Positions 5,229 through 55,456 are shown, counted from the first letter of the whole stretch. The stretch is 63,815 nucleotides of DNA, filler included, from an uncultured bacterium (GCA_965372715.1; 3 parts of 3 records of this genome joined end to end with filler, not necessarily neighbours in it); one strand, 5' to 3'. Notes: generated from the letters alone by a model not told the origin. Program-made: numbers and translations.

Positions 5229-5302
5229 GTAGGGGCGGCGCTTGCCCCGCCCTCCTGTAATATAACCGAACGCATAAAGGGCGGGGCAAGCACCGCCCCT
5301 AC
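5229..5302. repeat. GTAG-type REP doublet (REPIN), family A
   Basis: GTAGGGGCGGCGCTTGCCCCGCCCT ... AGGGCGGGGCAAGCACCGCCCCTAC; same arms and accgaacg spacer recur at 30390 and 57728. Confidence 0.9.
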
Positions 5303-28717: not shown

Positions 28718-30289
28718 CAGCTTATGTCGGCTTGTGCGTCTGGGTGGTCCTCGCGCAGGGATTATTCCCAATCTACAACACGCTGCTGGACCTCGCCCTG
28801 CTCGTCGCAGCGCTCACTCCGGGCCTGATCATGCTTGCCCGGCGGCACCTCGACCAGACGCTCCTGACGTTCGGCATCACGTTGTCGGGCGCGGCGCTCA
28901 TTCTTCGGTTCGCGGCCCGGCTGCTCGGCCTCCTCCGCTGGGACGGGCATCAGGCAGTTGGGCCGCTTTGCCTCGCGCATTTCACTGCCTTTGTCCTGGG
29001 GCTGCTGTTCACGTTCGCCGTATTCACTCGTCGAGGCTTCCAAGTCCGAGTGGCGTCAGCCGTGCTTTTCGGTTTTCTGCTGATTCTGGGCGCGGGGATA
29101 ACCGCGCCGGACTTCATGGTGGACGTCCAGCTCAAATACGCGATAGGGCGCGCGATTGAGGCGCGGCGAGGCATGGAGCGAATCATTCAGACGTTCGGGA
29201 ACGTCGCGGGCGGTGAGCGGCTGGATGATTCGGTCCGTAAGTGCTCGCAGTTCGACCTCTTGAGCCTGCCTCGCCTCCAACTTGAGAGCCTGTCGGAACG
29301 GTTCTTCGACAGCCAGCTCGCCGACGACGCCAGGCTTGTGGCCGATCTCCTCTTGGGGCCCAAGACCAGGGACGAGGCGCTTGTCGGACTGGAGCCGCTC
29401 TTGCTCTCTCGCCGGCTCGAGTTTGAGGTCGAGGACTGGACTGCGCTTAGGCTGAGCAAATGGCCCCTGCTCTTTAGGTCTCAGAGCCTCTGGCGTGAGA
29501 TGCTCTTTGGTGTCACCGAGCGACGGATGCGCGAGGGCAAGCTCGCTGACGCCGAGGCGGCGCTCAATGCTGTGATCACGTCAGGACATGGGGCGGACGG
29601 CGCCAAGGCCATTGGGATGCTGCTTGGTATGTACCACGGCGTCCTGGGAGATGTCGAGGGCGGCCTCGTGTGTCTGGGGCGGGTGCTTGAGGCGGTTCCA
29701 GAGTATGCCTTTCTACCCGCCGCTCGTGACGCGTTCGGTCAGTTTGATGAGAACACGCGTCGAAGGCTTAAACTGATCGCGTCCACTCAGGATGTTGCCC
29801 CTGTCACAGCTCTGGCTCACTTGAGGCTCTTCTTCTCGGCGAAGCGCTCCTCGGACGAGGCAAGCGCGTCGCGGCATCTGGACGATGTCATGCAGCTTGC
29901 GAACGGGCCGCTGGCGAGGCTGGAGCTAGGCTTGAGGCTTCACCAAAGGGCGAAAAAAGTAGATGGGGCCGCTGGCCTACAGCTCTTAAGAGCGGGCATG
30001 GAGCTCTGCGACGGACTCGAGGCTCCATTCCTGCTGCTGGCGTCGCAGCTGGACGTGCCGGATGAGCTCTCTGACCTCCCTGAGATCGCGCTCCGTCGGC
30101 TGGTCACGCTTCACGAGGAGAGCATATTCTGGCGCGATGGGCTAGAACGGCTCGTGGAGTTACTGCGGACACAGGGCAGACATCAAGAAGCGAACGAGCT
30201 GCTCGTAACGCATTCTGAACACCTTGACCTTCTCTCCGGCGACGACCTTGCGCGAGGCGCCGTAGGGGCGGCTCACGAGCCGCCCTCCT
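28705..30289 (+). CDS. Membrane protein with helical/TPR-like C-terminus, truncated at gap
   Basis: About 5 N-terminal TM helices; runs through a REP (30262-30289) into Ns. Confidence 0.6.
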
Positions 30290-51815: not shown

Positions 51816-52670
51816 ATGCGGCGAGTCGTAGGCTTCTTTTTCGTTCTTATTCTGCTCGTCCAGGTCGCCTGGGCCTCCGACGGGTTATTGACGATAACCT
51901 TCTTCGACGTCGGGACCGCGGACGCGGCGCTAGTAACGACGCCAGCCGGCGAACACATCTTGATCGACGGCGGGACGAGGCAGGGCGGCGAGAAGGTCGC
52001 GATGTTCCTGAAATCACGTGGGATCAAGTCGCTCGACATTGTGATCGCGACGCACCCTCACCCTGACCACGTGGGCGGCCTTGCGCAGATAATTCGCGAG
52101 TTCGAGGTCAAGACGCTCTATGATTCGGGGATGCAATACGACTGCGAGGGCTACACGGCGTATCGGGAGGCGCTCTCGAAGTTCAAGGGAACCATAACGA
52201 CTGTCTGCGGCCGAATGATCGTCAGTCTGCCCTCGGGGGTCCACCTGGATTTCTTGAACCCAAAGCGTCAGGCGAAGCACATTCACGCGGATTGCATCGT
52301 CGTGCGGCTGCGTTACAGAGATGTCGCAGCCCTTTTCGCCGGTGACGCGAACGACATCGCCGAGGGTGTTCTTCTTTTCGACGAGGTCCCGCTGAAGAGC
52401 GATATTCTGAAGGTCGGGCACCATGGAGCGTCAGATGCGACGACGGAGGCGTTTCTCAAGGCCGTTGCGCCTCGCTATGCCGTCATCCCGGTTGAAGCGC
52501 CGAACGAGTATGGCCGGCCGCATCAGGTCGTTCTGGACAGGCTCGAGAAGCAGGGCATCGCGGTCTATCGAACCGACAAATACGGGAACGTAACGTTCGT
52601 AACCGACGGGGAGAAGGTGGGTCCTCCGAAATGCGAGCGGCAACAACAAATTGACAACCGCACGAATTAG
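51816..52670 (+). CDS. ComEC/Rec2-type MBL-fold hydrolase, secreted
   Basis: FFDVG, LIDGG, THPHPDHVGG, GDA, KVGHHG, YGRPH, RTD..G. Confidence 0.88.
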   Translation: MRRVVGFFFVLILLVQVAWASDGLLTITFFDVGTADAALVTTPAGEHILIDGGTRQGGEKVAMFLKSRGIKSLDIVIATHPHPDHVGGLAQIIREFEVKTLYDSGMQYDCEGYTAYREALSKFKGTITTVCGRMIVSLPSGVHLDFLNPKRQAKHIHADCIVVRLRYRDVAALFAGDANDIAEGVLLFDEVPLKSDILKVGHHGASDATTEAFLKAVAPRYAVIPVEAPNEYGRPHQVVLDRLEKQGIAVYRTDKYGNVTFVTDGEKVGPPKCERQQQIDNRTN

Positions 52671-52688
52671 AACGGGCGGGTCTAAGAC

Positions 52689-53094
52689 CTGACAATTGTA
52701 CGCATATTCCAAGGTTAAGAGGCCTGTTTATTGGATTCTATGAATCGCACTCTTCGAGGGGGAATAACGGCGGTAAGGACGTGCGAAACACGGCAGGTCG
52801 GATTCTGTCGGGCGGAGCACACATCCGGCGCGTCATCGCCCGGCTTCAGCCGAGGCGATGCAAACGGCTATCATTATCCTAACCCCCGAATTCATTCGGG
52901 GGCCTGATGCGGAGGCCGTCGTCCTCCTTACATAGTGTTCAGGATGGGATTCTTTGGAGGGAGGAGGAGGTTCTTCGGCGTCTAGAGGTCAGCCTCTGAA
53001 GTCGGGTGTTAGCATAATAAGAGCCATTCATATCACCGCGTTGAAACGCGGTGAGTCAGAGGAACCTACCTCCAAATATGCGTATAATTGTCAG
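52689..53094. mobile_element. 406-bp non-autonomous IS4/IS50-like MITE
   Basis: 20-bp TIRs CTGACAATTGTACGCATATT / AATATGCGTATAATTGTCAG (19/20); 9-bp flanking duplication GTCTAAGAC / GTCTGAGAC; no transposase ORF. Confidence 0.8.
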
Positions 53095-55456
53095 GTCTGA
53101 GACACCGGCCCTACATACCGCCGGGAAGAGGCGCACGGCCTCAACGCCGCTGGTCATGGCCCTGCTCGTCGCCGCGTCATTCACGCTTTACCTTCACACC
53201 GCGAACCCGCTTTTTAGGTTCAGCGACGGCGGCGAGCTCGCGGCAGCTTCTCACACGCTTGGCGTCGCGCATCCGACCGGGTATCCGCTCTTTCTTACGA
53301 GCCAGAAGCTCTGGTCCTTCCTGCTCCCAATCGGCAATCCGTGTTTCCGGGCGAACCTATTCAGCGCCGCTTGTGCCAGCGTTGCCCTTGCGCTCATCTT
53401 TCTTCTCTGCCTCAAGATTGCGGGGCCTCTCTCGGGACTCGTCGCGGCCGGGCTTCTTGGCTTTTCACAGACGTTCTGGCTGCAAGCGACGCAGTCAACG
53501 GTCTATGCGCTGAACCTGACGCTCGCGGCGCTTCTGATTGTGTTGGCTTTCCTCGCGCTTGGTCGATTGAAATCGAGAGGTCCGGACGCGCGCCTGGAAG
53601 ACCTGCGCAAACCAGTTTGGCCCAACGTTTTGAGGGCGGCCGCGCTGTTCTTCTTCGTCCTTGGGGTTGGATTGGGCAATCATGTGACGCTGGCGCTCAT
53701 TCCGGTCGCGCTGTTCTTGTCCCACCCACGCCATCTCAGTCTGCTCCTTTGGAAAAGGGGCGTTGCACTCGCCGCGCTGGTCTTCCTCCTGGCCGGCCTT
53801 TCGGTCTATCTATACCTGCCCATGAGAGCCAACGCAGACCCGGCGATAAACTGGGGCGATCCGTCGATCTGGGAGCGACTGTGGGAACACATCTCGCAGC
53901 GCGACTACAAGTTCAAACAGGCGTCGCTCACATTCGACGAACACATGACCGTTACGGTGGCCTTCTTCGGCTCAACGGCAAAGGAGTTCGGCGTTCTCGG
54001 CGCCTCACTTGCTCTGATTGGACTTGTCGGCGGCTTTGTTCAGAGACGCTGTCTGACGATATTTCTGGTTCTGCTTTCACTCGGCACGCTCCTCGTGGCG
54101 CTTCTCTACGGAGAGGGGACCTACCTCGAACCCGTCTATTGCCTGCCGGCATACCTAGCGGCGGCGGTCCTTGCGGGATTTGGCGCGAGCGACCTGATCT
54201 TGCTGATGCAAAGGATTAAGAGAGCCAACGCCGCAGGGACTCGGCGCAAGTTGACCGTCGCAGCCACGATACTGCTCGCCATCTTGCCGATCGGGCTTTT
54301 CGCCGAAAACTACCACAGATGCGACAGCTCGAGGAATTACTACGCATACTGGCATGGCCTGAACATCCTCAAGACGATGCCGCTTGGCTCTACGTTCTTC
54401 GGCGAGACCGATACCGCCTTGTTCCCGCTTTACTACCTCAAGTTCGTGGAGGGGCGCAGGCCGGATGTCAAGCTCTACGACAGAAAGTGGCGCGTCGTGG
54501 AGTATTTCGAGCAGAACGACTTGCAATCGAGCTACAACCGTGAGATGCGGATAATCGAGGGGTCTCACTACGCTCCTGTGTTCTACGCGGAGTATCCGAC
54601 CGTCCCCGCGATCAACATAAAGCTCTTCGGGATATTGCTCGAGGCGTTCCTTACTGAGCCCTGGACTGGGACGATTGACTTCGAGCGGCTCTATTCCAAC
54701 TTCGTGCGGGAGCCTGAGGAGGACCTGTTCATCGACAAGTGGACCAAGGAGACGCGAGCCAAATACTTCCTGCTCTGGGGCCACCAGTATGAGTTGCAGG
54801 ATGACCTGGCCGAGGCGCGGGCGCATTTCGCGGAGGCGAGTCGCTTGGGCTATGACAATGCGGGCCTGATGAACAACCTTTCGATTTATTACCAACGGGC
54901 GGGGATGATAGGGGATGCGGTCTCTGCGATGGAGCGGGCTGTTGAGCTTGAGCCGGCAAGCGCGAGACTGCTCACGAGGCTTGGGATTCTCTACTACAAC
55001 CTCAAGAGACTTGACGAGGCCATCGAGAGGCTGAAGAGATCGCTCGCGATTGACGGTGAAAACCCAGACGCCGCCATCTACTTGGCCAATTCATACTTGG
55101 TGAAAGGCGACCACTCGCAGGCCGAGAGGTATTTCAAAAAGACGCTTGAGATAATGCCGCACAACATCGAGGCCCACAACAACCTGGGCTTCATCTACAA
55201 GGGCCAGCGCAAGTATGACGAGGCGGCCGAGCACTTCAAGGAGGCGATCCGCATCGGCACTGAATCCTATATGCCGTTTTTTAACTTGGCCTCAGTCTAT
55301 GCCTTGAGCGGGGACGCCGAGAAGGCGTTCAAGTGGCTCAGGCGCGGACGGAGGTATATGAGCAAACGGGTTGTTGAGTCTATACGAGAGCACCCTGATT
55401 TTGATAGTATTCGTGACGACCCGAGATTCAGGGAGGCCCTCGGTAGGGATGATTAG
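53078..55456 (+). CDS. DUF2723/TMEM260-like membrane glycosyltransferase with TPR repeats
   Basis: DGGEL...LGVAHPTGYPLF, EVY-like TVY, GNH, YLYLP.RA...NWG; C-terminal TPRs; start 53078 or 53156. Confidence 0.85.
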   Translation: MRIIVRSETPALHTAGKRRTASTPLVMALLVAASFTLYLHTANPLFRFSDGGELAAASHTLGVAHPTGYPLFLTSQKLWSFLLPIGNPCFRANLFSAACASVALALIFLLCLKIAGPLSGLVAAGLLGFSQTFWLQATQSTVYALNLTLAALLIVLAFLALGRLKSRGPDARLEDLRKPVWPNVLRAAALFFFVLGVGLGNHVTLALIPVALFLSHPRHLSLLLWKRGVALAALVFLLAGLSVYLYLPMRANADPAINWGDPSIWERLWEHISQRDYKFKQASLTFDEHMTVTVAFFGSTAKEFGVLGASLALIGLVGGFVQRRCLTIFLVLLSLGTLLVALLYGEGTYLEPVYCLPAYLAAAVLAGFGASDLILLMQRIKRANAAGTRRKLTVAATILLAILPIGLFAENYHRCDSSRNYYAYWHGLNILKTMPLGSTFFGETDTALFPLYYLKFVEGRRPDVKLYDRKWRVVEYFEQNDLQSSYNREMRIIEGSHYAPVFYAEYPTVPAINIKLFGILLEAFLTEPWTGTIDFERLYSNFVREPEEDLFIDKWTKETRAKYFLLWGHQYELQDDLAEARAHFAEASRLGYDNAGLMNNLSIYYQRAGMIGDAVSAMERAVELEPASARLLTRLGILYYNLKRLDEAIERLKRSLAIDGENPDAAIYLANSYLVKGDHSQAERYFKKTLEIMPHNIEAHNNLGFIYKGQRKYDEAAEHFKEAIRIGTESYMPFFNLASVYALSGDAEKAFKWLRRGRRYMSKRVVESIREHPDFDSIRDDPRFREALGRDD

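Follow-up and report, generated by a model that had tools for sequence, protein, structure and literature searches.

The segment described here lies between two genes of the window, by which we mean the whole stretch of DNA that was analysed (63,815 nucleotides, filler included), from the genome of an uncultured bacterium referred to below as G000. The upstream gene (51816..52670, + strand) is an ORF for a metallo-beta-lactamase-fold protein (PF00753, E 1e-16), presumably ComEC/Rec2-like. The downstream gene (53156..55456, + strand) is an ORF for a TMEM260-like membrane protein with TPR repeats (PF11028, E 2e-25), and its start codon is uncertain. An element of 406 bp, both ends included, starts 18 bp past the end of the upstream gene and occupies positions 52689-53094. 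It is bounded by 20-bp terminal inverted repeats at 52689..52708 (+) and 53075..53094 (-), recognised in the sequence and by a genome scan of ends, which are complementary at 19 of 20 positions. A GTG in the right end of the element is in frame with the downstream gene, to which it could add 35 codons (window 53051-53155). The preliminary description of the locus had placed 406 bp between the ends; this length stands, but it is that of the whole element, and the interior measures 366 bp.

The element interrupts the core of a REP that reads on the minus strand. The 3′ arm of this target REP (52674..52679, -) is the same in the empty allele of G001, a genome of the same genus, and the 9-bp left target duplication GTCTAAGAC, which is REP core (52680..52688), is likewise identical to the empty-allele core. 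Beyond the element come the right target duplication GTCTGAGAC (53095..53103) and, read from the sequence, the GTAG foot with the 5′ arm of the REP (53104..53114, -). GTCTAAGAC and GTCTGAGAC differ by one mismatch, at the centre: the 9-bp duplication first reported has the right length but is here an 8/9 match and not a perfect repeat. At the orthologous locus G001 lacks the 406 bp and holds a single core within an intact GTAG-type REP. This allele bears out that a MITE sits in a palindromic REP core, as described from the sequence, and that excision would restore a REP. Neither REP nor element was found at the orthologous locus in four more distant genomes of the family.

The right duplication and the next 11 bases are those of the junction of another copy, C16, and differ from the G001 empty allele, which suggests gene conversion. 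The left junction retains, up to the element end, the recipient's own core variant, whose centre is rare (4/180 scanned cores, compared to 81/180 for the commonest). No ORF of note was found in the element, nor a promoter or terminator consensus, and Rfam gave no match when guide or structured RNAs were sought. The lack of an ORF, the empty site and the many copies described below agree with the non-autonomous nature first attributed to the element. Moreover, the IS50 outside end, taken from record L220, matches the right end at 14/19 positions, as previously counted, and the left end at 13/19.

The left interior (52709..52832) is specific, by alignment, to a 400-408-bp subfamily. The cargo (52833..53054) is an inverted doublet of hairpins, located at 52833-52860 and 52883-52902, near 52990-53008 (a decayed one) and at 53033-53054, and its fold has a z of -6.8. 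This doublet also occurs without the inverted ends, in dozens of copies in G000; it is found at length in 4 of the 5 relatives searched and as shorter pieces in the others. The same hairpin repeat lies directly downstream of two Y1 (IS200-like) transposase genes of G000, L049 (C15:38747-39373) and L050 (C2:93865-94997), which are followed by arrays of non-GTAG hairpins; one of the two genes has an internal TAG. Two RAYT-like genes (L233:883-1689 in contig C58 and L234:1450-2052 in C18) are flanked by sister GTAG REPs and appear to contain REP copies within their reading frames. The target-REP core was not found flanking any of the 4 Y1 loci or the 2 RAYT-like loci in G000. Other subfamilies of the MITE carry different hairpin sets between the same ends, and among the sequences compared the ends are the constant part of the family. 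Derivation of the interior by deletion from the insertion sequence was rejected, since alignment, shuffle and HMM tests detected no homology to the autonomous element beyond the ends (20-22 bp).

Copies of the element and its target REP

The G000 assembly is 95.9% complete, and its repeats collapse at contig ends. A scan for the end with at most 4 mismatches gave 42 matches, of which 35 read as element ends and 7 were dropped as chance. Twelve pairs of ends, spaced by 306-408 bp, could be formed, which shows that the pattern is not due to chance; the other 11 ends are single, and 9 of these stand at the edge of a contig. Together the ends amount to 18 insertions, a count in which 3 join contig-end junctions by end type, a presumed pairing, and in which two identical junctions are counted once. 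The search for the terminal repeat advocated in the preliminary description therefore did find further copies in this genome. As for the expectation that they would share the REP core, 13 of the 18 have entered a single REP family, at its GTCTNAGAC axis, and 5 lie elsewhere.

The end pattern matched 2 of 41 genomes, both of this genus, with one match for the reversed control. G001 contains 26 ends at 2 mismatches or fewer, and 20 regions were examined. The two genomes share seven insertions, 93-99% identical. Eleven insertions are found in G001 only, 9 in the REP and 2 in other sites (for some, the orthologous G000 flank was not found), and four G001 insertion sites correspond to an empty REP in G000. 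Insertions in the REP core occur in both orientations. Some of the movement is recent, given the 99.7% identity of copies C23 and C66 and the agreement, at 53-54/54 positions, of four left ends located at contig ends.

Perfect direct duplications flank 5 of the 12 paired copies (C7, C9, C26, C38, and C84 with C37). They include direct duplications outside the REP, of 9/9 for C38 and 10/10 for C84 with C37. The length of the duplication tracks the symmetry of the target, odd cores giving 9 bp and even cores 10 bp. One G001 site corresponds to an intact REP doublet in G000; in G001 the element has taken the place of the spacer that separates the two cores, which suggests deletion to the second core. 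Near position 10100 of contig C7, G000 carries one REP family where G001 carries another family with a MITE. The features of a MITE are thus present: short length (306-408 bp), multiple copies (18) and no transposase match.

The target REP exists in 137 intact copies in G000, 3 of them inside gene calls and 74 in doublets. It has the features of GTAG-type REPs as defined in PMC6006769 and PMC8266576, namely a GTAG foot, an imperfect palindrome, an extragenic location, many copies and inverted doublets. Approximately 446 GTAG-arm REPs, with several core families, are present in G000. Within the window, such REPs lie at 5229, 5302, 13680, 24466, 24571 and 26308, and further ones at 30262, 30447, 31302, 57728, 57801 and 59829.

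A transposase clade with the same ends

The transposase of the clade described below was not found in G000, where tblastn with the partner protein was empty, or in 6 relatives; the mover is therefore matched by its ends only. Profile searches of G000 with PF14706 and PF02281 gave no matches, and the PF02281 control was also without matches. Two PF01609 matches in G000 were rejected. The first, L001 (C5:32188-33717; L001:808-2337), encodes a 509-aa DDE transposase that has its own imperfect inverted repeats and other ends, and which we take to be IS1182-like; the second, L002, is a fragment. The clade transposase was found in 0/7 genomes of the family, 0/401 mixed genomes, 0/401 and 0/3 genomes of two other phyla, and none of the viral contigs.

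When metagenomes were scanned for the end, 108 stretches matched, of which 80 were listed, many of the latter being chance matches in ordinary genes. Beside the listed stretches there were 130 candidate ORFs; 45 were scanned and four match transposase families. Three of these four, L090, L080 and L108, represent one family. L090 and L080 contain 3′ parts of the transposase gene with the right end inside the same REP type, and they come from close relatives, their flanks being 80-82% identical to G000 genes. L108 contains the 5′ part with the left end, and a DUF6788 gene comes first. The left end of the window element is 18/20 identical to the transposase-gene end in L090 and 19/21 to that of L108; its right end is 21/22 identical to the L090 end. 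The search for an autonomous IS4-family partner was thus fruitless in the G000 assembly but recovered the same ends on metagenomic transposase genes. A complete element with the exact ends of the window was not recovered, and public contigs used to extend L090 gave short internal pieces only, with no junctions. The DUF6788 gene (L108:988-1335, - strand; PF20586, E 1e-15) lies inside the element and overlaps the transposase start; a literature search for DUF6788 together with transposases found nothing. A 573-aa DDE gene in L082/L119 was set aside as unrelated to the clade.

A search with the L108 protein as the one query returned 143 clusters at 90% identity, mostly of 508-522 aa and nearly all on contigs of ~2 kb. 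The clade transposases are encoded by a single ORF of ~513 aa, and the duplications, of 9-10 bp (8 bp in L076), span about one turn of the helix, two traits of the IS4 family. Residues D96, D205, E375, Y368, R371 and K382 are invariant in 43 aligned rows and form the DDE triad and the Y-2-R-3-E-6-K signature that define the IS4 family (PMC2266710). The D-D-E spacers are 109 and 170 residues (P0004 numbering), the second being beyond the published D(60-110)D(100-150)E range. The best named and solved relatives are IS50R/Tn5, at ~25% identity, and a predicted model (pLDDT 89) gives TM values of 0.63-0.72 to Tn5 structures. The NF033590 score is at or just below cut-off, and PF14706 was detected in 2 of 5 members scanned, in 1 above cut-off. 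A quick tree of 60 rows, built with a midpoint root and no other IS4 subgroups, unites the 20 core rows (support 97). Proteins of 514-577 aa join them as a second tier, and a long branch (support 100) leads to IS50 and most background rows. Proteins P0149-P0160 form a sister group of 514-577-aa Tn5-like transposases that share the first insert. The clade-specific inserts relative to IS50R (approximately residues 150-175, 235-262 and 312-322 of P0004) fall where other relatives vary too, and hence none can be singled out as a targeting domain. The transposase gene runs into the right end, which includes its last codons and stop. Among 97 full-length proteins, 50 have the C-terminal residues CV that this end sequence would encode, which suggests that many members share these ends.

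On these sequence features we file the clade as IS50-related and not as a member of the IS50 subgroup. The Tn5/IS50-like mover proposed at the outset is upheld by the ends on transposase genes and by best matches to Tn5 in sequence and fold, but the enzymes belong to a separate clade. The window element is very probably a MITE of this Tn5-like transposase clade.

Outside this lineage, 5 of 135 genomes from one phylum contain related ends, as does a sixth, G489, at 2 mismatches. One of these lineages, G491, carries a 1647-bp clade element without the DUF6788 gene. The genome matches L004, L006-L008, L011 and L016 and the viral L231 and L232, with no partner end or duplication, were dismissed as chance. 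An 877-bp copy (L125:1992-2868) has its interior interrupted by unrelated DNA, apparently the remnant of another insertion sequence. Unrelated MITEs with nearly the same ends are found in other organisms, one of 139 bp (L076/L114:2501-2639) with an 8-bp duplication at a non-palindromic site, the other of 545 bp (L106:936-1480).

Proposed reading of the target

We propose that a transposase from a distinct IS50/Tn5-related DDE clade moves the MITE in trans. Following the established knowledge of Tn5, a transposase dimer would bind the 20-bp ends, excise the element and join it across a staggered 9-10-bp target. The dimer would read a symmetric target in duplex DNA, made of the core SNCT-N(1-2)-AGNS (GTCT-N-AGAC for the window element) and palindromic GC-rich arms. 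One REP family would then constitute a hotspot of ~150 mostly extragenic sites, with degenerate cores being used less; mismatched junctions would arise afterwards, through gene conversion and deletions involving adjacent REP cores. We give this reading, cut and paste by a Tn5-type dimer that recognises core and GC-rich arms as one extended symmetric target, a probability of about one half.

As a pattern in the sequences compared, the REP bias is real and recurs across lineages. The REP targeting suspected in the preliminary description holds for 13/18 insertions in G000 and 9/11 in G001 only; it is not exclusive, it concerns one REP family only, and its duplications are of 9 or 10 bp. All 14 junctions on 12 metagenome contigs with this end and this REP type lie in that REP; on 9 of these contigs a flank matches G000 genes. 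The copies compared are natural ones, on which selection and gene conversion act. The core matters, since 297 G000 REPs with similar GTAG arms and other cores have zero insertions (0.316^13 = 3e-7); for the same reason, explanations by any REP or any neutral hairpin fail.

It is less probable, and in our view unlikely, that the same mover prefers only a 9-10-bp palindromic core, as Tn10 does, with REPs holding most of the perfect extragenic cores and insertions there surviving selection. Palindromic 9-bp preferences are usual (Tn5 AGNTYWRANCT, Tn10 GNNGCTNAGCNNC; PMC2577343, Table 1), and 125 of the 148 intergenic exact GTCT..AGAC cores already lie within the target REP, so that a core preference which is strict and non-additive, apart from a small tail, would also fit, predicting ~85% without any reading of the arms. 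Of the 29 insertions, seven occupy sites other than the REP, and the symmetry of some of these sites is poor; a G at position 1 and a T at position 4 are common to these targets, and that of C38 fits the Tn10 consensus. However, when only the 7 non-REP sites are used to fit the motif, less than 1% is predicted in REPs. The bias was also evaluated by conditional logit with a symmetric additive 9/10-mer motif over intergenic positions, G001 sites being scored on the G000 background. The additive motif expects 42-46% in the REP, whereas 72-76% is observed (13/18 in G000; 22/29 with G001), and the fit is better once a REP term is included (likelihood-ratio p 1e-4 for G000 and 2e-9 with G001). More than an additive core therefore matters. 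Moreover, 6 of 7 distinct junctions in G491 stand next to an arm of a hairpin repeat for which there are 15 pattern matches, despite the existence of 45 exact 10-mers, although the copies there are rearranged and their junctions are thus not clean insertions. Finally, related ends are found in cores as different as GGCTTCAGCC, CCCTCAAGGG and CCCTTTGGG, each within that host's own repeat.

A second alternative we consider more doubtful still: the transposase would recognise DNA shape at the palindrome axis, where the DNA is either extruded as a cruciform or, being a GC-armed palindrome, bends easily. Its reading of sequence would be weak, and it would follow the REP family of its host. Across lineages, at least 4 unrelated repeat sequences have been entered at the axis. 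The repeats entered in G413 and G515 have 46 and 76 copies and different cores, and the junctions are again at their axis (the ends there are not tied to a transposase gene); in G413 one end type is found in two different cores, which a reading of structure fits as well. In a list of 30 outside junctions, which leaves out the duplicates L201 and L114 and the unpaired L116/L142, 19 end in a symmetric 9/10-mer, compared to a background of 11.5%. By our own reading 20 of the 30 are in hairpin arms and 10 are not or are unclear, a hairpin arm being, for metagenome loci and G489, a single-locus reading irrespective of repeat copy number. Against recognition of shape, the 297 equally palindromic GTAG REPs of G000 were never entered. 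Thirty free GGCTTCAGCC hairpins in G000 are also without insertion, a weak argument given an expected share of 17% (p ~0.09 with 13 insertions, 0.02 with 22).

A third possibility is that the IS4-type ends are relics and that the element owes its spread from REP to REP chiefly to recombination, or to REP-associated tyrosine (HUH) transposases that act on REP or internal hairpin sequences. This would account for the right junction of the window, for the interior doublet beside Y1 transposase genes and for the presence in G000 of RAYT-like and Y1 genes but no DDE enzyme, yet it is very improbable in view of the recipient's rare core variant kept at the left junction, the direct duplications of the non-REP copies, the subfamilies with only their ends in common and the other REP cores that flank the RAYT-like genes.

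The reading of an extended target by a Tn5-type dimer might be generalised to the clade. Its members would be specialised on REP palindromes, reading the extended palindrome or its shape and integrating at the axis as a site-selective counterpart of Tn5, while MITEs filled with hairpin arrays of other REP-like families would shuttle and nest repeat families. We put this forward tentatively, with somewhat less confidence than the mechanism itself. Since their elements land, in several bacterial lineages, mostly at the centre of the repeated palindromes of the host, the clade transposases are candidates for a site-selective relative of Tn5. With a natural branch of the Tn5 fold that inserts by choice at the axis of palindromes of 20-25 bp, one could test directly whether target selection depends on core sequence, arms or DNA shape; if the proposal is true, such a branch could also yield an RNA-free integrase for one installed landing palindrome. 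The IS50 branch would join the enzyme families that land in REPs, and a second mobile element would be seen to delete REP doublets and to nest them. If the preference is for 9 bp only, the result is a well-documented new MITE/IS family of modest interest.

Comparison with known systems

Among cut-and-paste transposases Tn5 has been studied best, and as a standard tool it is prized for its weak target preference. The clade has a strong bias to REP axes, for which, to our knowledge, Tn5 is not known. IS50/Tn5 and the clade have in common the fold, the DDE and YREK motifs and, at odd palindromes, the 9-bp duplication. At ~25% identity, IS50R is on a separate branch of the quick tree. Unlike IS50, the clade combines proteins of ~513 aa, a 170-residue D-E spacer and a right end lying over the last codons and stop, with, in one element (L108), a DUF6788 gene upstream. 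The ends of the window element match 6 of 7 positions of the IS50 subgroup signature CW------Y---CA-A--W-, position 14 being a G (compared with Table 1 of PMC2266710). Duplications are of 8-9 bp in the IS50 subgroup and mostly of 9 bp in the clade, with 10 bp at even palindromes. The subgroup spans 1350-1550 bp, whereas the G491 element measures 1647 bp and the gene for a 513-aa protein alone 1542 bp.

Tn10/IS10 also makes a 9-bp duplication on a symmetric CT-N-AG core (PMC2577343, Table 1), but the ends and protein described here resemble those of IS50, and the Tn10 consensus differs from the commonest core at positions 2 and 8. Other elements that land in REPs are IS1397 and ISPsy8 of the IS3 family and IS621 and ISPpu9/ISPpu10 of the IS110 family, and MITEPpu9 is linked to ISPpu9 (PMC3184786, PMC12288879). 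They belong to other enzyme families with other mechanisms, IS110 members using a bridge RNA; neither an Rfam match nor any evidence for a guide RNA was obtained for the window element. Neither the clade nor an IS50-branch element that targets REPs was found described in the open-access literature.

The closest parallel is ISRm22 of Sinorhizobium meliloti, an IS4-family element reported to have all its copies in REPs, inserted on the axis of palindromy (PMC1525189), and to have conserved target arms (PMC2266710). ISRm22 and the clade MITEs thus share REP-axis insertion. ISRm22 belongs to the IS4Sa subgroup and its ends begin with 5′-CA, whereas those described here begin with 5′-CT. Furthermore, ISRm22 is autonomous and confined to one species, with reported 6-bp repeats and 100% REP association, in contrast to the 72-76% association found here, where MITEs and, across lineages, several host repeat families are involved. 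The Tn5-like carrier appears to be undescribed, and its REP-axis behaviour has a precedent, ISRm22, in another IS4 subgroup.
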